A stretch of DNA of 62,468 nt, the filler included, from Dirinaria sp. TL-2023a (lineage: Eukaryota): the NCBI GenBank assembly GCA_051941275.1. It is 8 parts of 8 records of this genome, joined end to end, with 100 filler letters (N's around TTAATTAATTAA, not from the genome) between each part and the next. Parts side by side here need not be neighbours in the genome. Positions count along the whole stretch, not along the records: positions 15,730 to 23,472 come from JAVEBF010001275.1; 7 more parts are not named here. The stretch is one strand, 5' to 3'. This document shows, in pieces, positions 4,192 to 53,700 of this stretch (position 1 is the stretch's first letter; every line of letters starts with the position of its first letter). A program made the position numbers and the translations under genes. The notes beneath the pieces are model-generated. The model did not search any database and had not been told where the DNA came from. It saw only the letters and a list, made by a program, of their open reading frames with translations.

Positions 4192-6529
4192 CTAGGTATA
4201 GGCCCACGTATTTGACAAATTCCCACTATCTGCCCAAAACGGTTCGAAGCTGTTGAAAGAATCGACTGTGAAAACCAAGCCCATGGAGTCCGCTGATCCA
4301 TCCTGAGTTATCGCAGACGATGTCTCTGGCTGCAGGGTAATGGTATCATCCGTGGCTTGACTCTCGCTTGGATCGAGACCGGCGCCATGATCCTGCACTA
4401 GGTCGCCATTATTGTAGACTGAAAGCGCGTGTGTAGTTGTCAGACCGGTAGTCAGACCGGTACGGAAGCGGTCAATGAGAAGATCAGCTTTAGCGAGGAG
4501 ATTACGCGTCACGTTTGCTGCGCTGGCAGCCATTGCGAAATTCTCTCCGAAGCTTTCGAAAGCGTCGATAGCGCTATTGATAGCTTTGCGTGCCGATGGG
4601 GTCGAAGGGTGGACGGGGTATGCTAGGATGAATCCGATCATTGATAACGTTGCGTTCCATTGCCACTGATACACCTCGTGCCAGCCGCTCATGATATCTG
4701 TCTCCGTGAGTATCTGGTGGATAATGTGAATCATCGCTATGGCATGGTTGACGCAGGATATGGCATTCCTTTCCGCGAGCGGCGTGCTGTGGTTAGATTT
4801 AGGAGAGAAGCAGATGAAAGGTCGATAGAGATTCATAGTAAGGTTGTGATACAGAAGCTCTAGCATAAGCCGTTGCCGTTGGAGCCACACAGGAGCAAAA
4901 GGATCGACCTCTAATGCCGACCTGTCGGTGGAAAAAGATTGACCGGGACCCTTTCTTTTCGTCCTCAAGGCATCTGGAACATCCCGTAACCAGTTCTGAA
5001 GACATCTCATACTTGATAAGAGGAACTCAGCACAACTCTCTAGGGATTCAGAATCATTGTAGAGGCTCTTTCCGCCATTTATGTCAAGAATGTTCGCACA
5101 TTTCTCGAAGAACGCAACGTAGATAGCACGTGCTGCCAAAATCAATTTGGTGTTTTCCAAACCATAAGTGAGCCAAGTTACATCCTCATTAAAGGATGCA
5201 AAATTAGACCCAGAAAGTACAGCCGACTCTTTGTCGGCTCTTGGTAAAGTGCACGTCACCTGGGAGATCTGAGCAGAAAATGGTCTTCCGAGTTTCATGC
5301 AAGTCTTGATCTCAATAGCAAACACAGTCCACCAAATCTGTTTTTGGAACTCCTTTTGGGCCTGAGGAAGACCATCTGCTGGCTCTAAATGAAGACCTAG
5401 GATGTGAGCAGTCCGCACCGCCAAAGCCAGAGCACTGTGAGCCATGTTCTGGAAGGATGCATTGCAAAGGTAGGCAACTGACAAAATCTGGCATTGCAAG
5501 GTCGTGATCGATGGGCTCTCTAGCTCACTCGTCAGCAAGATCTGACATCTACGATAGAACCACCGGCCAGCGATAGTTGCATCATCGCCGTCTACAACGG
5601 CTCTAAGCGCCGCATCTGTATGGCTTCGTGGTAAAAATGCGATTCCATATTGCATACATATGGCGAGAATGATATCGGCGAGTGCTGAAGGTTTTCGAGA
5701 CGTCCCAGATGTCACCCAGAGCGACTTATAGTGTTCTCTAAAACGGGACTCGTCAAGAATTGGCATAGTGCAGTGATAAGATTGCCAAAACAAGCCTAAG
5801 AAATATTCCTCTTGAGATCTAGTTAAGTAATCAGCTTTCAGCGGAATCTCGTCCGACATTAGACTCTCTTCCGAGTCGCCCATCCATAGGCTTGTAGGAC
5901 TAGCAAAAGCTCTGCTCGCGGAGTTAGGGTGCATGAGATGGTCCGAGGGGGCCTGTTGGAACGCTGTGTCAAGATATGAACTCATTCGACCAATGAAGTA
6001 GAATGCAGAAGATGGACCGTAACTTTGGGTTTGACTTGACTGTGCAATACTTGTGTGGATGCCATCCCAGAACCTCCTCCCCGCTCCATGCTCTCTCAAA
6101 GGTTCGAGGTTTGGAGAAAGTAATCCCGCAGACGACGATCGCGGACACGGAGGTGAGGCGACTGATTTCATAGACGCGTGCTTATGAGCCTCAAGTTGCG
6201 TTTCTAACTCTTTAACGCGTGACTTCAGTCTTTCAATTTCCCTGACACCGTGTCAGCCCACACGCGCTTCGTGCCAGAGTATGCACAACGGACCTGATTG
6301 CGTGTGGCAGCGTCCGCACTTGGTTAGGACTCCTGTTGCTGCACTGTGCACCTCGATTTTGACAGTTGTTGCATGGGTAATAGTTATCACACTTGATCCG
6401 GTGTGCACGGCACCAGTCGCAAGCTCTGGCGACTTGACTACGTTTTAGCCGTGCTATAGATTGGGACGTCGTTCCATTCTGTTGCCCTTGATGAACTGAC
6501 TCCGGCATGCTTGCGAAAGTTGCGTACAT
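4192..6529 (-). CDS. Zn(II)2Cys6 fungal transcription factor with fungal-specific TF domain (exons 6529-6294, 6241-4192)
   Basis: ACDWCRAHRIKCDNYYPCNNCQNRGAQC binuclear cluster, coiled coil EIERLKSRVKELE after the intron, and middle homology region (AVRTAHILGLH, IWWTVFAIE..KLGRP). Confidence 0.92.
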
Positions 6530-7322
6530 CTTGGTCGTCACTCATAGGAGTCGGGCTGAAATGATTTTTAAAAGTTTCACTTTGGCTCGACGCTTGGGTT
6601 GATCCTTTACATGCAATGAGACTGACAATGCCAAAGACACTAAAAGTCCGCAGCGCAATCGTGGTAGCTGAAGAGGAATCAGCCCACTGAGTATTAAGCC
6701 AGTTTGCAAGCACTAGGCTTGGCAACGATTTCAGATGACAGTGCTATGGACGTTGCTCTGATGAGAAGAGAATATCAAAATTAGCAGACTTTCGCAGAAT
6801 TGTCTGGCTGTTGATATGTAATGGTACAAAGGACAGCAGCGCCCATTGTGCTGAGAACTGAAGCAGCTGAATTGTAAGAAAGAGCAACTGACCGACATTT
6901 GTTCGGCAATCCTGCAACGCAATTGTATATCATGAGGATACATGTAAGTAAGATGAGGTAGGCCGTGTGCAAACCTATCAATAATGCCAAGACCTCCGAT
7001 AACGCGCGGCGGAACGTCACTGGGAAGTTTAGCGGGGGAGTAGCCAGGACGGATTTTCGACTCGCAAGCTCCCAGCCGTGGGAGTTACAAAAAGTTTTTA
7101 TTTTTTCCCCCCTTTCAAACGATTCACAGACGACTATGTTGAACGAATGGCTGATGTCAAAAATAGATCTTTGAAGGAGTACTAAGTGTTGAGTATACTC
7201 GAGTAAGCGTTTTAGGGCAAGGAATACCTCTGATAACAACGGGATGCGAGCCCAGCTCAAGGCTCATTACGGTATTTTAGCCATTCGGTCCATATTCAGT
7301 TCGTTATCAAGCCACTTAACCT

Positions 7323-7771
7323 ATGGCTCACTTGCTAGAGCTCGTAGCTGCTGTCTTGACGCTGTACCTCTTCTTTTCAGCCCTCCAAGCTCTGTCTGTA
7401 TATTCTCGATATTCCAACGCAGCCCGACAGCATGGCTGTAAGCCAGCAAGGCGCTATCCCAACAAAGAGCCATTGCTCGGTCTAGATCTATTTCTCCGCA
7501 TTAGAGCAGCAAGGCGAAACGGTCACCGATCCGATGCATTCTTAGCTCTCCATCGAGAGTATGGAGCAACCTTCGAGCTGAAGGCTCTGAGTCGTACGGA
7601 GGTTCTGACCGCTCATCCAGAGAATATCAAAGCAGTAGCGACAACTCAGTTCGAGGATTTTGGAGTCGGGCCAAGACGGGGCAATGTCGGCGCTCCGTTT
7701 CTGGATCGAGGGGTGTTCACTGAGGACGGTGATTTCTGGAAACACTCACGAGCCCTCATCAGACCTACCTT
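7323..7771 (+). CDS. Cytochrome P450, CYP52-like, 3'-truncated at contig end
   Basis: N-terminal TM anchor, HGCKP..YP..EPLLGLD, TAHPENIKAVATTQFEDFG, GVFTEDGDFWKHSRALIRP. Confidence 0.85.
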
Positions 7772-9071: not shown

Positions 9072-12000
9072 TTTTGGCGCTCTGTTGTATCTTTGACGAA
9101 AAGTAACGGTTTTGGAGTTGGATGAATAAAATATTGAACTACGTTGAGGAATGAAAGAGTCGGTAGGAATTAGTGGATGAAAGATGGGCATTCAGTTTTA
9201 GATTGTTTTGTTGGAAATGAGGCGATGTCATCGCATGAAACACGTAGTCATTTAGACTGTGGTAACTGTATGTGGCTTGGCTTCCTTGCAAAATTCCACT
9301 CGTCAGTGTTCATGTCAATGAGCCAACACATGATGAGTTGACGATTCGGATCGGGACGCATGACAATGTAGTAAGGTAGCCTTCAGGATTGTATTATCGG
9401 ATTCCTTGAAGCAGGTGGACACTGGACAGGCTCTGATGCGCATAAATTGAGGGTTTGGTCAACTGCCCAGAGTACTTTAGGGTTATTGGGCCACTTGCAT
9501 TAAGGTAGTAAAGACCGAGGCCTTTCCCTATTGGCCAACCAATCACGATATATATTTGCACAAGGTATCTTCTGAGACCTTTCCAAGTAAATCGGCTTTG
9601 AAGATCGCATCCCGTGATCGAAAAATGATTTTGACATCTCTTTCTTTGTCTGCCATTCCCATTGACGCTGAGCGCTTTCGAAAATGATATGAAGGTGAAG
9701 ATTAATGACGAGTCGATTTTTACGTAGCTACGTACCAGAGTCAGAACTTATTCGAATTCCTAAACTCTCATGGGATAATATGCTCATGCCGAGACCACAC
9801 TCAACAGCATCCCACCACAGAAAAGCAGTCGGTGCACAACTAGGATCCCGAGCACCACTTTTCAATCTCCAAGGCAGATGGAAATCAGACATAAACGCAA
9901 CGGTAGCTGTCCAGGATAAGTCAAAGCCCAGATGTCTTGCAGTCCTCATTATCGCTTTACATATCTCGCGTAGGGCCCGGCAATAGCCTTTTCACCCAGC
10001 GAAGTACAAAGCTGATTTGGAAGATACCTTGTAGTGCATTGTGCTACCACTCAAGAGCTCATCAGCTGGGCGTCAGCTGGACGCCGAATTACGCCCGGTG
10101 GTGCAGAATGGCGCAGGCTGACCATCAAATATGTAGGGAATTTGTCAAATCCTGGGCCAGAGAGGAGAGAGAGAGAGTGGATAGTGACACTGAAACACCC
10201 AAGGTACGAATTGGAGACAGTGACGCGGAAAGAAAGAGGAGAAGTGGCCGATTGACAACTGTTGCACACATGTTACAGTATGCTCATGGCTGTTTCTGCT
10301 AGGACCATTCAAAGAGCGATTAGACGCAGCTGGTTTGCGATTGATGGTACTAGTGAACTACTGTGCCCCGTCGTCTAAGATGGCCGTGATGAGCCAAATT
10401 CATGACGGTGATCTAAAGATTCCAATTTTGATGCATCTGGAGTCACGGCGATGTTTGGCGAGTGGCGTCTCTCGAACATCTCTGCCGCAAAAGAGCAAGG
10501 GAGAACGGTGAAATTTCAACGATCTAGGTGATGGGATGGCCTGCGTGAGTACAGAGATCGAGTTGCGCCACAGATGCCGCCGAATGTTGCAGCTTAGGAT
10601 GAGCGCGATGTGTGGATAGTTCTGGTGTAGGCATACAAATTTGTTACAGATAAAGCATACCGTAGAAAAAGTAAAGGAACCTTTCTCGTGATGTAGAGTT
10701 ATGAATATGGATTAAACCGATCCAGTTCTGGATCTACTACAGTCCAGGGCTTGAATCTAGATGTGTACCATAGATACCCAAGGCTGCTAGTCTGCCGGAT
10801 TAGGATCGGAAGGCATTGCTCCTTGGCGGAGGCCTTGAGCAGACTGTCTGTATAACCAGTGAAGCGAAGAAGCCGTGCTAAAAACCCCTCGGAGAGACTA
10901 GTGCGTCAAGGGAATACTATTCTGAAGCTGCAACCGAGTCATTACTTTCCAGAGAATGTATGTACGCAGCGCATAACGAGCATGTACCCGACTGAGATGG
11001 CACCCGCAGTTGACAGCCGGCTGGCTAGACCTGATGAGAAGATCATTGCCATGTGTGTGTGTGCCCGCAGTGCACGAGCTGTCGCAGATCCGAAAGCCGA
11101 TACCAAGACATACATAATCTTGCATTGACAGTGACGTGGTACGCCTTTTGCAGAATCGGGACCCTACTGTAGGGTCTTCAAGGATCTTCAACAAGAACAG
11201 GATCGTGGTAGAATATTCATGAAAATGCAAATACGTATGTGCGTAGGATTCGTTGCCATACCATGCGGGCTTCGATGCCACAGTTCGCACTGCATCTGCG
11301 ACTTGTGGCCGCCTCGAAATCGGCCAGGCATGGGAAGAAAATGACTCTCGTAGCGGCTTCGAAGCCTAGTCTGTCAGCCGTGCAGGACCGGGTGTTGCTG
11401 CTGTTGCAGCACACGATTTTCTGGATGGGATGGATTATTGAGCACAGGACCGTCAGGACTTGTCATGGGATGAAACAGAGATCTCTCTTGAGTAGCAGAC
11501 ATGCAAATGATTGGCTGCGCCAGAAAGGAGAAGCTCGGACTGAAGATCAATTCGTGGAGAAAGCTGAAAATAGTTCCATCTATATGGGAAGTCCGGCACG
11601 AAACAAATCCAAACAGCGCATCAAATAGAAGCTGCATAGATCGTCTTACCCGCAGGACGTGAGTCAGATGCAGCCGCCATCGGTTCCTTCCACACCGCAT
11701 GACTGCATGGGAGTGTGAGAGATCATGCAGAGCGAGTCCCTACTCCGTACTGCTGCAGACCACGTAATAGGCACCCGGACACAGGGCGCCCCACTGCTTG
11801 CTCAAAGTCAGACACGCTTCTATGCGGGTCGTCGCCTTTTCGTCAGCTGTGTGGGTGTGTGGCATGGCGACCCACGCTGGCTGGGTCTTGACAGATGCGG
11901 ACGCGTGCATGCATCAGCCTACTTGTACCGGGTACAGTAGAGTACGAATGTTGGTCGCTTGACGAATTCCAGGCAGCCTTGCCGATACGCTCTTGGTCGA

Positions 12001-15729: not shown

Positions 15730-17261
15730 AAAAAAAAAAAAAAAAAAAAAAAAGAAAAAAAAAAGAAAAAAGAAAAAAAAAAAAAGGTCAACGTCTTCAA
15801 GAATCGAGGCATCTAAACCCCCCCTCCCCCTCGCTTTTCAAATTAGATAAAGAACAGATCCTCATGCAGCGCCAGCACTAAAACACCAATCAATCCCATA
15901 TGATCAGATCTAGCTCTACTACAAAAAAAGCGTTGTGGGATGGATGGAATCTCACGTATAGATGGTCTCGAATCGAATGTCTTCTTCTGCATAGGGTATT
16001 GGTAATTTGTACGTGTGCGCGCGCGCGTGTGCGTGCGTGCGTGGCAGTGTGAGAGCTCTCGATAGAGCCGCTTAACTACAAATGAAGAAGAAAAAAAAAA
16101 AAAAAAACGAATGTGAGAAACCTCTTTTCTTCTTTTCCTTTCCCTTTTTTTTAAAAAAAACGATTCATTTCAAAATCAAACACATCGTCTCATCAAGTAT
16201 TAAGTATCAAGTAATCGAATCCAGATTCACATACCGCATTCTAATCCATCTCCCCTCTCACCAAAAAACCCCCCTTTAGTATTGTCAAGTCATCTCCCCC
16301 GTTCGCTCTCTCTCTATAAATCCCATCCCATCCCATGCACATCAGATCCAAGATCCAGAGTCGCAATGCTCGTCATTTTTTATTTTTTAAAAGAAATCCA
16401 TATCTAACTCTCCTACAGACAGACAGTCGACCGTGTTATATAATATCTCATGTACAATGCCTCTCTCTTAGATCGAACATATATTTTTCTGCACAACCGT
16501 ATAACTGTTTTGTATACGTGTGAGTGTGAGTGAGCGCTCGATTTTTTTGTTTTCGAATTTTTTTTTTTTGGGGACTGTTAAGCGACATAGGAAGAAAAAG
16601 GGAACCTCTTGATATCGTTTCATTTTTTCACTTTCGTTTCACAGAATCGGATGGATATACTTCGATTAGAAGCTCGTCATCTTTGGATTTCAAATCCATC
16701 CTATAGAAAGACAGAGCGGAAAGGAAGGGAGGGGTAATACACTATACAGTGTACAGTGTACAGTGTACAGAATGGTTGGATGGATGGACGAGGAATTTCA
16801 TTTTGGGGTCTATTGTATATGCTGAGGTCGCGAGGAGGCACTACTACGTAAGCGTAGTATTTTATTATCTTTGTATATATGCATGGATTTTCGAGATATC
16901 TTTCTGGCTCATCTGTAGTAGCTAGCTGATCGCGCGATGAAAATTGTTCATAAGAAGATCATAGATATGATATAGTACAGACTGAGAGATCTGAGATGGC
17001 AAAGTGCTGCCGCGCCGCGTGTGTCTTTGGGATTACTCGGGATCGGCGGCTCGAAATCATTATGCGGCGCAACTTTTGGGTTTTCCATAGTCTGCTGGAA
17101 CCTGCGGGTGGTGCTGTCGAAGTCTCAGCCGCGGTGGGGAAAGACAATCTCACAAGAAAGCCTCGACCCGCCCTCGCTGCTGCGGTCCTGGCTTTACCCC
17201 CTTTCAGATGCGGTTGAAAAGGTCCCGTGTTTTACACTGCCTTGGAGAAAAACCATCCTTC

Positions 17262-20200
17262 TCAAGCTCCAAAATGCGCATACCCAGCCCATACAAAAGG
17301 CGCCATGCCCGCCTCTCTAGCGCTCTTGGTAGCAGCATGCAGCGCTCTGGCAGACCGCCCGATATCAACAACCCCGTCCTGTCGGCCGACTTTCAACCCG
17401 GCATAAAACGCCTCAGCGATACTGCAAGCCTCTTTATCCAGGATCTCCCACCACGTAGCCACCACGTTCGGCACCCCGGCCATCTGGAAAGCGCCGCAGA
17501 TATGCAGCGCCTCCTCGGCCAACGCGTGGTCGTGGTTGACGGCCGTTTCGCACGCGGACAAGTACGCGAGCTGGCATTTCTCAAGCTCCATCCGCATGAT
17601 GAACCGCACGCTGAGAGGTTTCGGCCGCCAGTCGCTCAGGAGCAGTTTCGATTTCAAAGGGTCGAGCGCATCGGCCTCGCCATGGCAGGCGAGGTGCGCG
17701 ATGGTGCAAGTTCGCAGTCCTTGGATTATGTCCTTTCTCATTGGAGCCGGAGAGGAGAAAGACGATATGGTGTAGTTTGGCGATAGTAGGGTTTTTGCGA
17801 CGGCAATTTCTGTCACGGCGTTTGGTAGCGCGATATGGTCTGGTGTTGTTGGCATGGCGGCCAGGAGCGCTCGTGGGGCTTTGTTAGAAGGCTCTTCCGA
17901 AATTGATAGTTTCTGGATTTCCGCATCTGTATCTTCGGTGCTGAATTCGGGCGTCGCTGGAGTCGCTGCTGAAAGTGCTTTTGAAAACCTGCTCACGGGT
18001 TTTCCTTGGTCAGTCGTAGCTAAATCACCAGCATCAAGACTCTCCGTGGTCGGCATTGCTGTCGTGAGTATCTTTGGTGATTCCGCTCTGCGATCTCGCT
18101 GCACGGGCGCCTTTCCTGTTTCCAGGAGTGAATCGTCAGGTTGAAAATGCGACATTCTAGCCCTTGAATATATTAACGATCTCAATGTTGGGCTGTATGA
18201 GCTTATGGCTCGGTCCATCACCGCACAAGGTACCCCGGTATCCCGTGCTTTACGGTGATCGCCGGCTGCGTGCACGGGCAGCCTATTTGCCCAATCGCAT
18301 AAGATCCACCACACGCGCGGCAGCTCCATGCCTTCTTCCTCAATTTTACTCCCCTGGAGGCCTAATCGGTCCAAAACTGGCTCGGCAACTTGATACCAGA
18401 GCCAACTGAGAACTTGATCAAGCCCGCCGTCGTCTTCGCCAGATGATTGCCACTTCTTGACGGTTGAAGTCAAGTTGCTATATTGTGCTCTGCATGCGTC
18501 TGCAGAGTACCCAATCAACTCTTGACGGTACACTGATCCTTGAGCGACTACCAGAGCAGTCCCATTGGAAGAGCCGATCCCAGAAACAAGCATAATAGTC
18601 GGACCGCTCTGGGAAAGCTTCTCAAATTCCTCATCGCTTATATAAGGCTGCTGGAAATGTTCAAACCCCTTGTTCTTACGAATATCGGATACGACCAATC
18701 TGAGTTGCGACTCCACTCCGAATTTATCTATTGGTTGATTTGTAAAGACTTCGTCATTGCCAGCACTGCTCAACCGCTCGCTCAGCCTTTGATAGCGGTT
18801 TGCGAGCTCTGGGAGTTTTTCTTTCAGCTCCGCGATAGGCGTTCTTTTATTAAGCAGTCGGGTCAAAATTACACTCCTGCCCCGTTCATATACACGAACG
18901 ATGTCGCGCGGCTTTTTCTCCGCGATCTTTGCAGCCCATAGACTTAGATACGAGAAAAGATGGTATTGCCGTAATTGAGAAAGTTGCTGCGACCGAGCAA
19001 TACTCTCAGAAAGGATATCATCCACTAATTCCAATGCCAACGCGAGAGCCTCGTCAAATTGGATCTTAGAAAAGGGATCAGTCGACAGAATCCCCGTCAG
19101 ATCTTTGCTGTTAACTATACGAGCTGCGAGTAGAGCAAACGATGTTGCCGCTTTTAGCTTGGCATGAAGCTCATATTTCGAGTTTGCGAATATTTGATAG
19201 TTCGTTTCTGCGCATCGCATGCCATACTTCGCATCGCCAGTTAACTCAAATAGAGCGTCAAGTAATGTCGCCAGTGGCGGCATATGACCTGTGGACCGCG
19301 TGCCTCGTTCTTTTGAAAGGGTTTCAATTTGATCAAATAACCCAAGAGCGGTCTCCAGATCCTCGACGCGCTTGGGATTTTCCGAGGCTTGACCCCTCCG
19401 CGTCCAAGCTTCTGCAGCGCTTCGTAAAGAATCGATACGTGGGCCGAATTCAGCACACTCAACATTCACTGCGCAAGAATAGTGTTGAAGGACCTTGTCA
19501 ATCTGTGCTGTCAGAGGTTCTGATCTGGGTCGAGTCGAGATCAAATGGCCAAGTTGTAGAATCATTTCTATACGGTCGCTGCGGCGCATCGGCATAGGGC
19601 CCAGAATCATCTCCTGGATCCAGTACTGAGCTTCTATCAAATCTGCTGACTTCTGCGTCTGGTCGACCGAGGCGCTGTTGGCTCGACTTCTTAAAATACC
19701 GGACAACTCGGCTGCCCTCCGGCCGAACGGGTCTTCCCGCCGAGCAGTCAGAAGAACCGACAAACGAAACTGAGAAACAGCGTCCTCTAAAAGTGGTACT
19801 GCGCCGTATTTTTCAAAGCGGCTTCGTTGAATCTCGCCCAGAGTGAATCGAACATCTGCTTCAATATGTTGAACCGGCCATTCTGACTTTCTGGCCTGGA
19901 TCCTATCCAAAGCATCGACAGCGAATGAATGCGCCCTGGTGAGGATGAGTGGGTCATAAATCCAGTGATAGCTCAAACGAAGACTTTTGGCAATTTGATA
20001 AGATGCCGTGATTCGGCTTGCCTGAGGACAAGCACTATTTTTATCGATAGAAGTCAGCATTTCGAAGAAACACCGGCACATGGCAACCATGTCTTCTTGT
20101 TTCTTAAAGGCCTCAAATTTAGCTTGATGGAACTTTCCAAGCGTCTCTTGCTCAAACGGCTTGTGTGATGGCATGACCGCTGGCTTGGTTTGCAGCTCAT

Positions 20201-20900
20201 TAACGAACTTTTCTGCTCTCTCCAAGTCCTGGATATCTTGGCTGATGTGGAATCTTGTCGCGAGGATATTGGCAGACATGAGATGAAATATTGTCGATCT
20301 GTCCTCCTGCACGTCTCGAAACGGACACTCGACCCCCAACAATTCAATAGCAATGTCGAGGTCATCGCTCGAACCATCGTATTCCGCTCGCTCGTAAAGA
20401 GCAATGGCAGTAAACAATAGGAGATCGACGAAGAGACCGTCGTCTTGAGTGACGACCATCCACAGGGAGTTGATGGCATCAAATAAATCATCCAGCGTCT
20501 GATGGTCACCATTCACACCGTAACGACGATGCAGCACGTACATGATACCAGCTTTTGCTTGCAGATTCTCGGGGCTGATCTCAGCAGCTTTTCTATAGCA
20601 ATCGAGAGACTTGTCTACATCCTGCCTTTTCGATAAGCGGAACGCCCTTTGTTCGTGAAAAGAAGCTTTTTGAAGCCACAATTCGCAGATCAAAGTCTTG
20701 CTGACGATTCCTTTGGCCGCATCGGCCAATTGGATAGCCTTTTCGAGGAGTGATAGGGCATGATCCAGCTCAGGTCCTTTCAACCACGAGAGGCACCACT
20801 TTTGGAAAGATTCCGCGGCCTTCTTCTGAACAGCGCGAATTGTTGGCTCGACCAGACTCTCAATGGATTGTTCTACTACTGGCGCTGGACCTGTTGACAT
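17262..20900 (-). CDS. CHAT-domain (caspase-like clan CD) cysteine protease with long N-terminal helical/TPR-like region, 1212 aa, single exon
   Basis: Catalytic motifs AHLACHG (His codon 17682-17684) and LAYLSACETA (Cys codon 17550-17552). Fungal CHAT hallmarks: ERGRSVI, LSWLWYQVAEPVL, LPRVWW, LPVHAAG, ISSYSPTLRSL, EALHICGAFQMAGVPNVVATWW, WAGYAHFGA. Confidence 0.93.
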   Translation of the reverse strand: MSTGPAPVVEQSIESLVEPTIRAVQKKAAESFQKWCLSWLKGPELDHALSLLEKAIQLADAAKGIVSKTLICELWLQKASFHEQRAFRLSKRQDVDKSLDCYRKAAEISPENLQAKAGIMYVLHRRYGVNGDHQTLDDLFDAINSLWMVVTQDDGLFVDLLLFTAIALYERAEYDGSSDDLDIAIELLGVECPFRDVQEDRSTIFHLMSANILATRFHISQDIQDLERAEKFVNELQTKPAVMPSHKPFEQETLGKFHQAKFEAFKKQEDMVAMCRCFFEMLTSIDKNSACPQASRITASYQIAKSLRLSYHWIYDPLILTRAHSFAVDALDRIQARKSEWPVQHIEADVRFTLGEIQRSRFEKYGAVPLLEDAVSQFRLSVLLTARREDPFGRRAAELSGILRSRANSASVDQTQKSADLIEAQYWIQEMILGPMPMRRSDRIEMILQLGHLISTRPRSEPLTAQIDKVLQHYSCAVNVECAEFGPRIDSLRSAAEAWTRRGQASENPKRVEDLETALGLFDQIETLSKERGTRSTGHMPPLATLLDALFELTGDAKYGMRCAETNYQIFANSKYELHAKLKAATSFALLAARIVNSKDLTGILSTDPFSKIQFDEALALALELVDDILSESIARSQQLSQLRQYHLFSYLSLWAAKIAEKKPRDIVRVYERGRSVILTRLLNKRTPIAELKEKLPELANRYQRLSERLSSAGNDEVFTNQPIDKFGVESQLRLVVSDIRKNKGFEHFQQPYISDEEFEKLSQSGPTIMLVSGIGSSNGTALVVAQGSVYRQELIGYSADACRAQYSNLTSTVKKWQSSGEDDGGLDQVLSWLWYQVAEPVLDRLGLQGSKIEEEGMELPRVWWILCDWANRLPVHAAGDHRKARDTGVPCAVMDRAISSYSPTLRSLIYSRARMSHFQPDDSLLETGKAPVQRDRRAESPKILTTAMPTTESLDAGDLATTDQGKPVSRFSKALSAATPATPEFSTEDTDAEIQKLSISEEPSNKAPRALLAAMPTTPDHIALPNAVTEIAVAKTLLSPNYTISSFSSPAPMRKDIIQGLRTCTIAHLACHGEADALDPLKSKLLLSDWRPKPLSVRFIMRMELEKCQLAYLSACETAVNHDHALAEEALHICGAFQMAGVPNVVATWWEILDKEACSIAEAFYAGLKVGRQDGVVDIGRSARALHAATKSAREAGMAPFVWAGYAHFGA

Positions 20901-21506
20901 TGTTGCAAGATTAATACATGTGCGACTCTGACCCGTATCAGGATATGGGACAATTCAAGATTAAGTATATATTCGAATAGGTCGAGTAAAGGCTCCTGAA
21001 CGCCAATAACGAGTTAATGAGAAAGAGATAGGCAAATGGCCAGACACTGAGGCTGGGAGCATCGTGACAAAATCATATCGGATGCGGCGGCTGATTCGTA
21101 CCAGTCCATTGGTGAGGTGAAAAGTACGATTAAACAGTATGCACGATGCTAGTTGGAATATTATATATTACTTATTACAGAGTATAGCGAGACCACCCAG
21201 GCTCGCCAGGTTAGGTTAGCATCTCAAGAAAGAGACATTCGGGGAACGTCGGTGTTGCCAGCGGGCTGCAATACTATTACGTAATACACAGTCCGATGTC
21301 TTGGCACAGCTACATCCATCGGATAAGATAAGATACCTCGGTTCATGGAAAATTGCACTTTCCCTCTACCTACAGGTAAAGTACCTACAGGTATCTTGAG
21401 GTCCTTTTTCAATAGCTGCCTTATTTAAGGTACTTCAGGTATAAGGTACGTACTTCCCAAGGCATTATCACTTTCTAATCGCCACCTGATTTTTCTCCGC
21501 AATTCC

Positions 21507-22547
21507 ATGGCATCTCTCGAACGCGTATACGCGGACCAGATGCGACACCACCCCTATGGCTATGCCCTGTACCATCCCGCTTCCACCACCACTCTCCGAC
21601 CGGGCTCAGTGGGGGTTTTTGACGGGTTAGGGTTCTGGAACCCTATTGCTCACCTGGAAGACCCGACGAGTCTACAAAAGCACGGTCTGAAGCCACCAAC
21701 TGAGGGTCTGGAGCGGGCACCATCGGAAAGAATCCGGAAATGGTCCCCAAGGACCTCGTCAGGAGTCAGTGAGAAGCTGCTGGGATTCCGTATTGGCGCT
21801 GGGTATGCTGTCTTAGGATGAAGGGCTTTCTATCCTGCAAGGCTTACAGTTTGCAAGCGCCCTCGCCGCAGGTCTGCCCGTAGATGCGAACCTGGCCGTG
21901 GAATACCAATCGGCTGTCAGCTACGGCGCCGTTCTCATCTCCTCATCCCCGGTAACGCGCGAGGCATTCTACTACCAGGCCCCATTCAAGAAATGGGTCA
22001 AAGAGAACGCGGCCGCACTGTTGCATGGGCATTTGGCGGAAGATATCAAACAGCACGGGCTCTTTGTCGTAACTCAAACTTTTGCGACGAAAAAATGTGC
22101 GCTGACCGCATGGAGGCACTCCGAGAGGAAAGTCCATTTCGGATTTGGAGCTGGCATTTCCGGTCTCGCAGAACTAAGTCCTGAGGTAGACTGGTACGCC
22201 GGCTCCAGCGAAACAGGGTGGAATTTCCATGAGGCGGAAGGGTCCGAATCCAAAGTTGTGTTCGCTGGAGGCTTGTCATTCCACAAGGTCTTGGGGTCCG
22301 AGGTTACTAGTCTCACTCTCTGTGTACGCCTTAGGCGCGGACTCTGACGGCTTCTTAGAGCCGTTTACGTGAGAGCAAATCTCCCACCAGAGGAGCTTTC
22401 GATATCCGCGAGAGCATCCCTGTCATCCTTCCCGATGAAAAATGCGCTCTCAGCTGCGAAGTCTGGGGAGACCTCGATCGGCATTCTGATCTCGAGAATG
22501 AAGATGACGACGACATCGATGGGGAGCTTGAAGGCGACGAGGGCTAA
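21507..22547 (+). CDS. Fungal gasdermin-like (RCD-1/HET-Q1-type) pore-forming protein, ~309 aa, 3 exons (21507-21802, 21858-22302, 22359-22547)
   Basis: Exons join in frame (930 nt). Recognised family motifs: HPYGYALYHP..LRPGSVGVFD..GFWNPI, GAVLISSSPV, FKKWVKENA..L, HGLFVVTQTFATKKCALTAW, VVFAGGL. Size matches fungal gasdermins, the C-terminal tail is acidic, and the gene is adjacent to a protease. The second intron donor (GTTACT) is the least certain site. Confidence 0.82.
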
Positions 22548-46995: not shown

Positions 46996-48918
46996 GCTTG
47001 TTGACAGGTGTAGATTGAGGCGGGAGGCGCCGGTTTTGATAGATATGTTCGGGTGTAGGATTGCGCGCCGTATGGGTTCACCTTCAGTCAGTTCGTGATC
47101 CGCCTTTGGTGATGCTGTAGGAGAAGGGCTCGGCGTTGGGAGAGGAGGTGGTTTGTGAGCGTTTTCAGATGCGGCTTGTGATGAGGATTCTTTGGGAGTA
47201 ATAGATCCCTGGGCTGGGACGCAAAGGGTTGTAGTGCTTGGTGCAATGGATGGTGATGTTGCATCAGCTATGTGTTCGACTTTTGGAGGTGGTTCGGATG
47301 AGATTGGGTCCGGCCTCTTCGATTCTAACGATAAAGAATCTTCAAAGCAGATTGGATCATTGGGTATCACTCTTTCAGGCAGCTGCTCCCACTTTAGTAC
47401 AGAAGCGAAGGGTAATTGCTATTCAAAGAACTGGGGGCAGTACCTTGGTGGTGGGAGATAAAGATCTGATCTGGGGGCTCTCGTTTGGGTAGTAAGCCCG
47501 TACTGGCCCCCTATCTAAGGCTACTCCGACCTTGACCTTCAGAATGTCACTGAAATTTCTCAGAAGGACGTCAAAGTCGCGACGACGCATCTCTGGTAGT
47601 AAAATATGCCAGTCTGGTAGAGTCCATTTATGGTAAAGGCGGCCATGAGTCCTAGGAACGTAGTACTGGCCGTGGAGCCTGAAGAAAAGATCGCAAAGAT
47701 AGCATGCACTCTTGCTGGAACAGATTGTCCTTGGTCGTTTCCTCTCCAAATTCAGCTCGTAGAAGAAGAGAAGCTGAATCTCAGCATGCACCTTGACCAA
47801 TCTATGATAATCTGCGGTGGCCTGACGGAACTCCTCAACTATGACTTGGATTGGCTTTCCCAAACATTTCTCTAACAAGGGCTTGAATGATCTCGACTGC
47901 GCAACAGTTCGAGGTCGAAATATGTTTTGAAGAACTGTAAGAGGATGAAGTGCCTGATCTACATTTGAAGGTTGAGAGGGACGTGAGATTGGACATGATT
48001 CAATATTGATGCTCTTGAACATAGGGTACTGCTCGCTTCGAGCGATGCAAACGAGGTCGCAGCAGATCGAATAGTATCGACCGAGCTTTCCCACAGCTTC
48101 AGGGAGGAATGCTTTGAGCTCAGGGTCTAGCGTTTTTGAGGAATTGAGAGCCACTTTAAGCTTCGTACTTGAAGCTAAACTATGCATCTGAGTTATCAAC
48201 TCCATGGCCGCGCCTTGCACTGCGGAAGACGCAGCAGAATGCTCTTGAATGTCTTCAAATTTCAGGAACAAAGCTTTGAGAATCGTTATCTTTGTAAGGA
48301 TATCCGCCAATTCCATAACTGTGATATTCGGACTGGGCTTTATAGATTGGTCTCTGATGGCAGTATCCAACAGCGTAATTAGCACAGACTTGCCCTTGCT
48401 TCGACTAGATTGCTTAGCATGCTTTGATCGTAGCCGGGATAGGATACGGCAATAATCTAAAGTAACTATGCATCGGAAAAGAGCCTTCGTATCGTCATCT
48501 TTACTATTCGCTGGGACATCATCAGTTGACACTATACTTGATCGAATGTAGTGTATGAACCTCTTGAAGCTCCTTGTTCCAAGATCGTTGCCATAAGCTT
48601 GAACCCAAGCACTACCTTATTGACATCACCGTTGTTTGAAGTCAATCGAATCGTACAGCTGCGACCATCACGAGCTTCCTCGAGGCAGACCGCCATGACC
48701 TTAGCCGAGTCATGCGTAGTATCTGACAAGAACGCCAAATTCTCCGAAATCTGCTTTTCATGCTGGAAAGATAGTTGGTATATGCTTGAGAGTACCGAGA
48801 AGTCTTTTGGCTGGTTCTCTTTTGGACATTCGGGATATTCGTTGAGCATGGATAGTAGTGTAATCGCCTCCTTCAAGCTCTTGTGAGGTGTAGTTCTGGA
48901 TATTATGGTGTTCATCAT
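46996..48918 (-). CDS. OTT_1508-like nucleic-acid deaminase (exons 48918-48561, 48510-47444, probably 47382-contig end)
   Basis: VHAEIQLLFFYE..ICSSKSACYLC..F..HG.YYVP.THGRLY.KWTLP (HAE + CxxC Zn deaminase); N-terminal LSFQHEKQISENLAFLS..KVMAVCLEE. Confidence 0.85.
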
Positions 48919-50740: not shown

Positions 50741-53700
50741 TCATCGGTTAGCTTTTTCGTCCAAGGCCATATTATCGAGCGCTGAAGCTGAAATTGCTTC
50801 ATTCTCAGCCTTTGCCATTATTTCTGCATCAGCACATCTTTCACAAGACGAAGGATCGCAGACCCAGTTTAGAAGCCTCAGCGTCTCCTGATCATTAAAT
50901 AGTGTGGCCCAGTACCGAGCCTTCCAATCATTTGGGCCAGCCCGGTGAATGTCGGCTCCGTGGTGTAAGAGAATCTTCACGATACCATGACATTTGAAAA
51001 AGCATGCCCAATACAAGGAGGTTCGTCCTCCCATGTCGGCCTCGTTGATATTGATCCATTTCTCGACAAGCAGCTTGAAAACTGTTTCATGTCCTTTGAG
51101 AACTGCTTGATATGGTGCAGAAACCTTAGGCTGATACGATTGATGATTGAACTCCGGAGGACTAACTGTCCACCCGAACGAGGTCTTTTCGATGATGGGC
51201 ATCGTGTCGATCAGGAGTTGTATGATGTCCTCATACCCTGAAATCGCCACCCAGTTCATTGCCCAACTTTTTGTTATTTGACTTGCAAAAGAAAGAGCGC
51301 CATTTTGTAGTAGACGCACGACTATGGCGCGATTGGGAATTTCTGACTTTCTTAAAGCATCGAGCGGGCTTCCTAGAGTGCCTTTATATTCGACGTTCGC
51401 GCCACTGTTGATTAGAAACTCTACGATTTCAAGATTTCCAGCAAAACACGCTGCATTGATGGCGCTGCCGAAGAAGCCTCCTCTTTGATTGACATTTGCA
51501 CCGTTATGAACGAGTGTCATGACGACAGCAACGTGGGACCTTAGACGCCGCCTGGAGCGCATTTCCAAAAAGCCCTCCCATTTTGTTGGCTTCCACATCT
51601 TTTCTGAGCAAGTACAGGACGATTCCGTCGTTAAGTCCGAGACACGCTGCATAGTAAAGTGCCGAAGGTGATTCAGAAGATAAAATATCCTTTTTGTAAT
51701 CTCTGACCTCTCTGGTCAAGCCACACCATTCGGGTTTGGAGTAAGAAGCCCACAAGTCTGGGTGTCCAAGAATATCGACAATCATCTGCATTGTACCTTC
51801 TGTCATGTGTTCACCGCACTCTTTGGCATGAAAACCCCGGGCACTGGCAGCGTATTGGAAGAGCGGGCTTTCGAAATGTTTTCCTCCATTCGACTGATCG
51901 TGTGGGCCCCATATTTCAGGAGGCGGATCACGCGGGCCCCAGTGTTTCATATAGTGTAAGCAATTGTGGACTATTTGCTCGTGCGCTACAGTATGTAGTA
52001 TTGCAAAGCATGCTGCTGGCCCCTCTGATGCTCGTTTCGAGGTCAGATATTCCTTTACCGAATAGTGAGCGAGATGAACTTCTAGCACCGACCCAACATT
52101 GCCGCTTTGCCACGTCGTTGCGACGAGGCTTGATAAGGTGGTAAGAGGGGTCACTGAATCAAAAAATCTATGACTCGGGCTAAAAGCCGGCTCTGCGGAG
52201 TCATGGATGACCATTGCTTCTGCAAGCTCCCTCAATGAAAGAGGTCGCTTGGAAAAAAGTAGCCACATAAGTGCCGAAAGTGCTTCCTTATGATATGCTT
52301 CGTCAATGCTCAACAGCATCCGATCGTAAGTCTCGTCCAGAGTCCGAGGTAAGGTATGGAGAGTCTGCTTGACTGTACTTGCTCTCAAGCATTTTCTTAA
52401 TGATTCCAGCTGGCAAGACGCCCACCTGAACCTGCCAAGCCTCGCATCAAAACTTCATTTTCAGTCATTGAAGATACACTTACATGCCGTGCGCACCACT
52501 AGTCAGTTTTTGTTCGACCTGATCTTTTACCTCTTGGGGCCAATTGCACAATTTGGGGTCGTTGCATAGCTGCGTTCGAACGTGCAAGAGTATGTCATTG
52601 TCAACGTCGCTGTTTTGGATACTTATAGGCCAAGATGTCACAAGCTTCTCTAGATCGACTAGGTCTAGCTCCTTGCGACTTGTCACGAGCATGTGTAAAT
52701 TGGTCATATCGAAGTGTTTGAAAAACTTGAGCATCGACACAAGCTTGGCGCGTTCGTTGTTGCTAGACGGACATTCGTCAAGGGCATCTAATATAATGTA
52801 AACCTGTTTACATTTAGAAATCATAGCTTCCAATGCTTTAAGCAAACCCTCTCTGGAAGGTTGCTCGTGCTCATGACCCTCATATATACCCAAGACAGCG
52901 TCAGGCACAACAGAATGCTGACGCAGAATCTGAAGCACTAATGACCGGAGCATTGAACTTGTCTTCTGCCTTGCCGCATCCTTGAAGCTGAAATAGTAGT
53001 ATGCGAGATAGTGAAAGTCTCGATGCGAACAAAATTTTGCCGTTTCTTCAACTATTGTTGAGCTGGGACCTGTCAGTCGTGAAGGAAAGTGTAAGCGGTG
53101 CCATACCACAAGACTGTCTTCCCACACCCCGGAATTCCATGAAGCCAGTAGAATGGTCCAGGATTATCTCTCCAAGACCTATAACTATCGCTGCGGATGA
53201 ACCAGTTGCCTGTATCTGGCTCGCGCTGCTGACATGCCCATTTGTGGTAATCTGCTACATGGTCTGAGGTAGAAATCCATTTCTGTACTTTTTCTCTTCG
53301 ACCCCCTAGGGCATGATAGAGCAATTTAGTATGTACGATCAATAGCGTGAATTTTCAGCGGATCTCACCCGTATTAAGGTCTTTTGTGAGAAGAGCAGCG
53401 CTTGAGACAATGTCTCCGATCTCGTTGAAAGCAAGTCTTGTCTCATCCAGCGCGGAAACGACGTTTGCATGACTAGACAAGCCCATCTGCACGCTTTGGT
53501 GGTTGGCTTCCGAGACGTCTCTAGGGAAGTGTGAGTCTTGTATTCAAAATGGGAAAGCACGCATTGACGTACAATTTAAGAACACGTAGGGAAAGGCCTA
53601 GATGGCCCATAAGTTCCAAAGAAACGATCTCCCTCAATTTGGTGATAGTACTCTCTCTGAAAGGGTATTGCAACTGGATTGGAAGCCTGCGCACGGTAGT

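Follow-up and report, generated by a model that had tools for sequence, protein, structure and literature searches.

The closest described relatives of the locus analysed here are protease/gasdermin clusters of fungi, which are taken to correspond, in fungi, to pyroptosis and whose triggers are called an open question in a 2025 review (PMC12881547). In the census of Clavé et al. (2022; PMC8851545), a CHAT gene is found no more than 10 kb away from 353 of the 1,884 het-Q1 homologues of fungi, and many of the HET-Q2-like proteases described there carry TPR, ANK or WD40 repeats. For one such pair from Podospora anserina, these authors report that the CHAT domain of Q2L-6 (TPR-CHAT, 1005 amino acids, aa) processes the adjacent gasdermin Q1-6, leading to a barrage and localized cell death (PMC8851545); the findings on TPR-CHAT/gasdermin pairs are restated in the 2025 review (PMC12881547). 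Johnson et al. (bioRxiv 10.1101/2021.06.07.447441) describe fungal gasdermins beside proteases in 40 of 52 cases. Here we analyse a pair of divergently transcribed genes from Dirinaria sp. TL-2023a, a member of a lichen-forming genus of the Lecanoromycetes. They encode a 1212-aa TPR-CHAT protease and a 309-aa protein with a predicted gasdermin fold, and probably constitute a module of two genes for regulated cell death, of the HET-Q2-like protease/gasdermin kind already described. The pair lies within a stretch of 62,468 bases (the window), which consists of eight contigs of ~7.7 kb separated by artificial spacers (N44-TTAATTAATTAA-N44); contig 3 (15730–23472, 7743 bp) carries both genes.

The P. 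anserina pair Q2L-6 (Pa_6_6610) and Q1-6 (Pa_6_6615) is likewise an adjacent two-gene cluster of a filamentous ascomycete and, as described in PMC8851545, combines a protease that has TPR at its N-terminal and CHAT at its C-terminal end with a neighbouring gasdermin of ~300 aa (Q1-6, ~35 kDa). The CHAT motifs HFACHG, LSACSTAE and WAGYVHFG of the census (Dataset S2) resemble, by eye, AHLACHG, LSACETA and WAGYAHFG of the window protease. The latter is longer than Q2L-6 (1212 versus 1005 aa) and contains a low-complexity insert of ~130 aa. Processing and death have been shown experimentally for Q2L-6/Q1-6 (PMC8851545), whereas the window pair is known from sequence and models. In HET-Q1/HET-Q2 of P. 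anserina a partner protease also removes a short C-terminal piece of a gasdermin-like executioner, cutting after F238 (PMC8851545). However, HET-Q2 is an S8 subtilisin rather than a CHAT protein, and its gene and that of HET-Q1 are idiomorphic, coming together solely when cells fuse, while both window genes reside in one haplotype. The sequence-only reading of the locus implied that a caspase-like/gasdermin axis would be new for a fungus; with 353 clusters and the Q2L-6/Q1-6 pair already described in PMC8851545, this part has to be given up.

Bacterial operons of a gasdermin and a caspase-like/CHAT protease (7n50, 7n51, 7n52, 8sl0) share with the window pair a small gasdermin-like protein with a flexible loop before a short C-terminal piece, which is inhibitory in the bacterial proteins, and proteases with repeat domains. 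According to Johnson et al. (bioRxiv 10.1101/2021.06.07.447441), cleavage of the bacterial proteins takes place within the disordered loop that immediately precedes the inhibitory peptide; the Runella gasdermin is cut by a CHAT protease after L247. These operons supply the best structural match to the 309-aa protein (8sl0) and the only profile matches. In contrast to them, the window gene is eukaryotic, has two introns, is transcribed divergently from its neighbour and encodes no N-terminal Cys for palmitoylation, and its tail, at ~66 aa, is longer, contains a hairpin and ends in an acidic stretch. RCD-1-1/RCD-1-2 of Neurospora crassa (8jyx, 8jyy, 8jyz) share the fungal gasdermin fold with the model (Z 6.2–7.9), but sequence similarity to them was not detected by profile search, and RCD-1 is described as acting when its two allelic forms encounter each other (PMC12881547). 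No protease is known to take part in its action. On the protease side, the TPR-CHAT protein Csx29 of Craspase (7zoq, 7y9x) has the same TPR plus CHAT architecture and an aligned catalytic dyad; it is bacterial, however, and is switched on by a CRISPR effector guided by RNA, and its substrate is Csx30 rather than a gasdermin.

Fold and anatomy of the 309-aa protein

An AlphaFold2 model of the 309-aa protein was built with 68 sequences, members of its family picked from among the longer database matches. The model has a predicted local distance difference test score (pLDDT) of 86.3 and a predicted template modelling score (pTM) of 0.85. Foldseek against the PDB places gasdermins at all of ranks 1–13 (from bacteria, animals and Trichoplax, and RCD-1), with 8sl0 as the best match at an expectation value (E) of 3e-5. 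VIA-align, which compares the model with each of 48,161 PDB representative chains in an unbiased manner and independently of Foldseek, also returned gasdermins at ranks 1–13. Its best match is again 8sl0 (Z 11.0, root-mean-square deviation 4.1 Å, 175 residues aligned), and the RCD-1 entries score Z 6.2–6.4. The top non-gasdermin is a CDC-like protein at Z 4.5; CDC-like and MACPF proteins stay at or below 4.5, and rank 50 has Z 2.6. In a second structural comparison the first 22 rows are gasdermins, among them RCD-1-2 (8jyy_H, Z 7.9) and inactive bacterial gasdermins (Z 5.8–6.6; 7n51, Z 6.6). The 309-aa protein thus very probably has a gasdermin fold, judged from its predicted structure, and the proposal of such a fold in the sequence-only reading agrees with the model.

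Sequence comparisons were made at several levels. No Pfam family scored above noise with the exon pieces, with P0001 (the deposited 309-aa protein), with P0002 or across the 68 members; the Pfam copy used does not contain Bact_GSDM (PF26164), so that an absent Pfam match cannot exclude a bacterial-type gasdermin. A single member (1 of 68) matched Pfam Gasdermin, at E 0.023. A phmmer search of P0001 against PDB sequences gave nothing at E ≤ 10. The 68-member profile gave just three matches to PDB sequences at E ≤ 10; all are bacterial gasdermins, with weak E values of 0.016–0.021, and they cover a shared W-x3-N and strand region. Of the PADLOC families, bacterial gasdermin (bGSDM) alone was matched repeatedly, by 4 of the 68 members (E 0.029 at best), and 11% of the members of the closest named cluster in a language-model atlas (0.89) carry Bact_GSDM. 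A link to gasdermins is therefore suggested by the predicted fold together with weak profile matches to the bacterial proteins. The ‘fungal gasdermin motifs’ that the sequence-only reading had ascribed to the protein could not be substantiated, since Pfam, phmmer and the profile comparison with RCD-1 gave no match and the family is absent from the list of het-Q1 homologues.

Alignment occupancy and conservation among the 68 members are high up to residue 243, where the final long strand of the model (231–243) ends, and then drop. The strand is followed by a low-confidence linker (245–263, pLDDT 49–70) and by a tail in which DSSP assigns a β-hairpin (264–270 and 275–283) and a short helix (288–294) before an acidic end; 21 of the 66 residues between 244 and 309 are Asp or Glu. 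At least 45 aa follow the conserved VVF motif in 36 of the 68 members (median 47). A Cys within the first 12 residues occurs in two of the 68, and the window protein is not one of them. This layout of the model, a loop and then a short structured tail, appears to match that of microbial gasdermins. By analogy with the bacterial proteins, the extension encoded by exon 3 is presumed to be the inhibitory piece that holds the cleavage region.

Some family members are much longer. P0145 (897 aa) has a gasdermin-like region at 13–221 and, behind it, ankyrin repeats (E 3.5e-102 for Pfam Ank_2), and members of 631 and 782 aa have an extra part without a Pfam match. Either genuine fusion genes or gene models that were joined in error could account for them.

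Linkage with CHAT genes and structure of the locus

Metagenome contigs were scanned with an alignment of ten small-gene sequences, which gave 39 loci in 19 lineages (grouped at ≥ 90% DNA identity). In 12 of these loci a full-length homologue of the window protease is encoded next to the small gene (tblastn; L002, L004, L006–L010, L018–L020, L023 and L033). These represent 6 of the 19 lineages, and 6 of the 13 that have at least one locus with ≥ 5 kb of flank. Five of the six show the head-to-head arrangement of the window; in L023 the CHAT gene is downstream on the same strand. Linkage in named genomes was read from consecutive accession or locus-tag numbers, not from coordinates. Both families are numbered consecutively in Xylona heveae (KZF19065/KZF19066), Fusarium verticillioides 7600 (FVEG_13435/13434), F. 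odoratissimum (FOIG_09764/09765), three F. oxysporum strains and F. fujikuroi (FFB20_05642 to 05644); a further F. fujikuroi pair, FFUJ_12735/12737, is two apart. Three more pairs come from contigs of equal length. Identities to the window proteins are 85/69, 74/50, 56/35, 52/35 and 48/29% for small protein/protease pairs. The identities of both proteins fall in step, which fits inheritance as a unit. The linkage for which the sequence-only reading proposed a search in other fungi is conserved, in 6 of 13 long-flank lineages as well as in Xylona and several Fusarium genomes. One locus, L020 (2156–10723), has a single CHAT gene and two gasdermin-like copies (6510–7342 and 10001–10723), and an equal arrangement of three genes is suggested by the F. 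fujikuroi tags FFB20_05642 to 05644.

In the window, the protease gene occupies 17262–20900 on the minus strand as an intronless, uninterrupted open reading frame (ORF) of 1212 aa, with its TGA stop codon at 17262–17264. The Pfam domain CHAT (PF12770) matches aa 830–1211 (17268–18413, minus strand) with E 1.7e-29 (cut-off 24 bits). The catalytic residues, assigned from the homologue alignment and from the solved TPR-CHAT structure 7zoq, are His1073 (motif ACHG, codon 17682–17684) and Cys1117 (motif SACET, codon 17550–17552), both encoded on the minus strand; they align to CHG and ACET of 7zoq and are invariant in 30 of 30 aligned homologues. An intact helical-repeat/CHAT protease with a His-Cys dyad, as first read from the DNA, is thus confirmed. 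The low-complexity insert (aa 926–1055, 17736–18125, minus strand) lies within the CHAT domain and is variable in length; just ~50 of its residues are aligned in distant homologues. The protein database contains an identical 1212-aa entry (P0192) and homologues that are 76, 69 and 50% identical.

The N-terminal helical/TPR region (aa 1–790, 18531–20900, minus strand) is the presumed sensor. As a single sequence it gives a weak TPR signal (Pfam TPR_2, E 0.018). The profile of the protease family, however, matches TPR proteins with E 1.4e-34 (profile positions 89–330), kinesin-light-chain-like TPR at positions 543–768, TPR-CHAT 7zoq with E 5.4e-8, and also Csx29; the closest clusters in the language-model atlas are of the TPR_10 type (score 0.91–0.92). 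Across homologues this region diverges faster than the catalytic lobe, with 21–30% versus 56% identity to the Xylona protein. Hypervariable repeat DNA in the TPR region was considered and rejected, as a scan for DNA tandem repeats in the protease gene, including this region, was empty.

Full-length TPR-CHAT relatives are present in Actinomycetota, of which 80 loci were retrieved. Six-frame ORFs of these 80 loci contained no member of the small-protein family at E ≤ 1. Among 142 same-strand adjacent ORFs from 50 of the 80 loci neither Pfam nor PADLOC recognized a gasdermin (opposite-strand and farther neighbours were not scanned), and five actinobacterial genomes with a TPR-CHAT relative contained no bGSDM. 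An origin of the pair by transfer of a ready-made bacterial operon was therefore dropped, as no gasdermin stands beside the actinobacterial relatives scanned. A DUF6338 ORF lies just upstream of the TPR-CHAT relative, on the same strand, in 4 of the 50 loci (L045, L046, L052 and L055), and in two of these four a Fic/DOC ORF lies downstream.

The small gene spans 21507–22547 on the plus strand. Exon 1 (21507–21802) encodes aa 1–98 plus 2 nucleotides (nt), intron 1 (21803–21857) is 55 nt long, exon 2 (21858–22302) continues to aa 247, intron 2 (22303–22358) is 56 nt long with a CTGAC branch-like site, and exon 3 (22359–22547) encodes aa 248–309 plus the TAA stop codon. Both introns have GT..AG ends. 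Exons 1 and 2 thus hold the gasdermin-like core (aa 1 to ~243), and exon 3 is exactly the C-terminal extension. The three-exon model translates letter for letter to P0001, a hypothetical protein deposited from a metagenome-assembled genome of Dirinaria sp., and a homologue with 61% identity supports the first exon junction.

RNA evidence comes from assembled contigs of three RNA-seq runs, all from one lichen-metagenome sample of one study. These contigs are 90–99% identical to the locus, and in three of three runs they omit exactly 55 (21801>21857) and 56 bases (22300>22357) with GT..AG ends; the spliced joints identify the molecules as RNA. Contigs from the same runs span the protease gene (17018–20916). 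Those of the small gene start at 21494, and 21090–21493 has no RNA contig. Both genes are transcribed, and the introns spliced, in the lichen sample; as the contigs stem from one sample, they show presence and not expression level. The three-exon, 309-aa gene of the sequence-only reading is thereby corroborated. The RNA contigs (X1–X3) differ from the window by ~1.3–1.5% over 19401–20401 (TPR region), ~6% over 17018–18426 (CHAT end and 3′ flank), ~9% over 20709–21089 and 2–5% across the small gene. These uneven differences indicate that the RNA sample is a related strain or species with another genome.

The two genes are separated by 606 bp (20901–21506, no strand assigned), presumed to act as a bidirectional promoter. 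Spacing and divergent orientation agree with the sequence-only reading. No further long ORF was seen in the flanks of the pair, where small ORFs were not searched against the library, and there is no second copy within the window. Elsewhere in the window, contig 7 (46996–54683) carries pieces of an NLR-like gene on the minus strand, with an NPHP3_N P-loop at 52483–53163 and ankyrin repeats at 50744–51715, and an OTT_1508-like deaminase ORF at 47426–48616, also on the minus strand.

Proposed mechanism and alternative readings

We suggest that the 1212-aa protein is a latent sensor protease whose TPR region would respond to a cue, which could be microbial, viral or non-self fungal. The activated CHAT domain would then cut the 309-aa neighbour in its flexible linker (approximately aa 244–263), ahead of the hairpin and acidic tail encoded by exon 3. 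Loss of the tail would free the core (aa 1 to ~243), which may insert into the membrane, assemble into oligomeric pores and kill the hypha. Since the examinations of fold and linkage both came out in its favour, this mechanism of sensor, CHAT cleavage and pore remains the best reading of the locus, and we regard it as probable.

Several observations weigh against it, in whole or in part. Sequence homology of the small protein to any gasdermin appears marginal. The 68-member profile gave no match to RCD-1 at E ≤ 10, and hhalign of the family with one actinobacterial bGSDM (found in 1 of 401 Actinomycetota genomes) gave a probability of 0.43 and E 0.14 in a different region, and hence no support. 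TM-scores in Foldseek are low (0.26–0.46), partly because many of the targets are pore states. The structural alignments extend to residue 284–285, so that the core may include the hairpin and the piece to be removed may be smaller than proposed. As the best Z was obtained with an active-state oligomer and not with an inactive monomer, the model says little about autoinhibition. Tails are shorter in 32 of the 68 members, although some of these are possibly truncated gene models. In 7 of the 13 long-flank lineages there is no CHAT homologue nearby (four of the seven contain partial or weak matches alone), and no S8 peptidase was found in the CHAT-less loci among 90 ORFs of ≥ 170 aa from 16 loci. 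RCD-1, finally, shows that proteins with a gasdermin fold can act without cleavage.

The mechanism could be as proposed and still serve allorecognition (heterokaryon incompatibility) rather than pathogen sensing, with death following when incompatible alleles, or presence and absence forms, meet after hyphal fusion. This alternative overlaps with our preferred explanation and concerns the trigger. HET-Q1/HET-Q2 and rcd-1 are both described as allorecognition systems (PMC8851545, PMC12881547), and the differences of ~1.3–9% between the window and the RNA contigs along the locus may also be counted in its favour. A possible case of presence and absence is given by L003 (1–2161) and L002 (5001–9892). 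Their small-gene copies are 99% identical, yet homology ends 108 nt upstream of the gene, beyond which L002 has the CHAT gene and L003 has AT-rich sequence up to the contig end. The difference could reflect polymorphism for presence and absence of the gene, insertion of a repeat or a break in the assembly; with the AT-rich stretch at a contig end, the last two explain it equally well. Moreover, the two window genes are found in one haplotype and both are transcribed, which fits a latent sensor–executor pair better than idiomorphs. We therefore consider an allorecognition trigger unlikely.

A different possibility is that the small protein has a gasdermin fold but is not switched on by its neighbour, either because it acts without proteolysis (by partner recognition, as in RCD-1) or because another protease cuts it. 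The CHAT protein would then act on different substrates, and nothing but a promoter region and the setting of a defence island would be common to the two genes. Lineages without a nearby CHAT gene speak for this, as does the company kept by some of their small genes: in L014 (10001–13776) the gene converges on an NLR-like ORF of 915 aa (NACHT/NPHP3_N), which has no match over its first 246 residues, and in L026 and L027 it lies beside MORN-repeat and HET-domain ORFs. The short tails of 32 of the 68 aligned members, and a model that is nearer to the active than to the inhibited state, point the same way. An S8 protease as the alternative partner at CHAT-less loci was rejected, as none was found among the 90 ORFs from 16 loci, and a relaxed scan of six large neighbouring ORFs at these loci revealed no protease. 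On the other hand, the full-length CHAT architecture stays adjacent to the small gene in Lecanoromycetes, Xylona and Fusarium alike while both proteins diverge in parallel, the small protein has a loop ahead of its tail, and the sole tested fungal TPR-CHAT/gasdermin pair in the sources cited here works by cleavage. Activation independent of the neighbour thus seems to us distinctly unlikely.

That the adjacency is meaningless, and the small protein a β-rich protein of other function whose model is merely gasdermin-like, is very improbable: the gasdermin sequence evidence is marginal, and middling Z scores are common with the structural alignment method, but Z 11.0 clearly exceeds what unrelated rows score (at rank 50, Z 2.6), 13 of the 13 top rows are gasdermins, and the linkage recurs in independent lineages and classes.

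Relation to the het-Q1 census and wider meaning

By sequence, the small-protein family lies outside the HET-Q1/RCD-1 homologue set. None of 19 accessions examined (13 distinct family members), and neither of two partner CHAT accessions, is contained in Datasets S1–S3 of PMC8851545. The census covers, with other gasdermins, genomes of F. verticillioides 7600, F. fujikuroi IMI 58289, F. odoratissimum NRRL 54006, Fonsecaea multimorphosa, Alternaria alternata Z7 and Neonectria ditissima. Its two Lecanoromycetes genomes (Lasallia) have zero gasdermins. The spacing in the window, with a CHAT gene 606 bp from the small gene, is well inside the census criterion of a protease gene within 10 kb. The family comprises at least 540 clusters (50% identity) at E ≤ 1e-3 and 279 at E ≤ 1e-10, and its members are named only ‘hypothetical’ or ‘uncharacterized’. 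Among the literature matches listed, we found no paper on the small-protein family or on gasdermins of lichen fungi, which is not proof of absence.

We tentatively propose that these proteins form a second, unnamed fungal gasdermin-fold family, with at least 540 clusters in Ascomycota and Basidiomycota, that was missed by the 2022 census and has kept TPR-CHAT partners independently across several ascomycete classes, lichen mycobionts with transcription of both genes in the thallus among them; the case for this is nearly balanced, with doubt slightly ahead. Such a family would be nearer to bacterial gasdermins than to RCD-1 in structure and profile, and some of its members would stand beside NACHT NLRs or be fused to ankyrin repeats.

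As the TPR-CHAT-to-gasdermin axis has already been demonstrated in Podospora, the locus opens no new mechanism. Its novelty is modest: a gasdermin-fold family without annotation has a partner of the known type, and it occurs and is transcribed in a lichen fungus, for which the locus is a clean, expressed and intact example. The locus also points to a family of this fold that is sizeable and unannotated and that escaped censuses based on sequence, so that the number and spread of such modules are probably underestimated. If this holds true, fungal pyroptosis-like immunity would be broader than so far counted, and lichen-forming fungi would possess it, possibly using it to police their symbionts or invaders.

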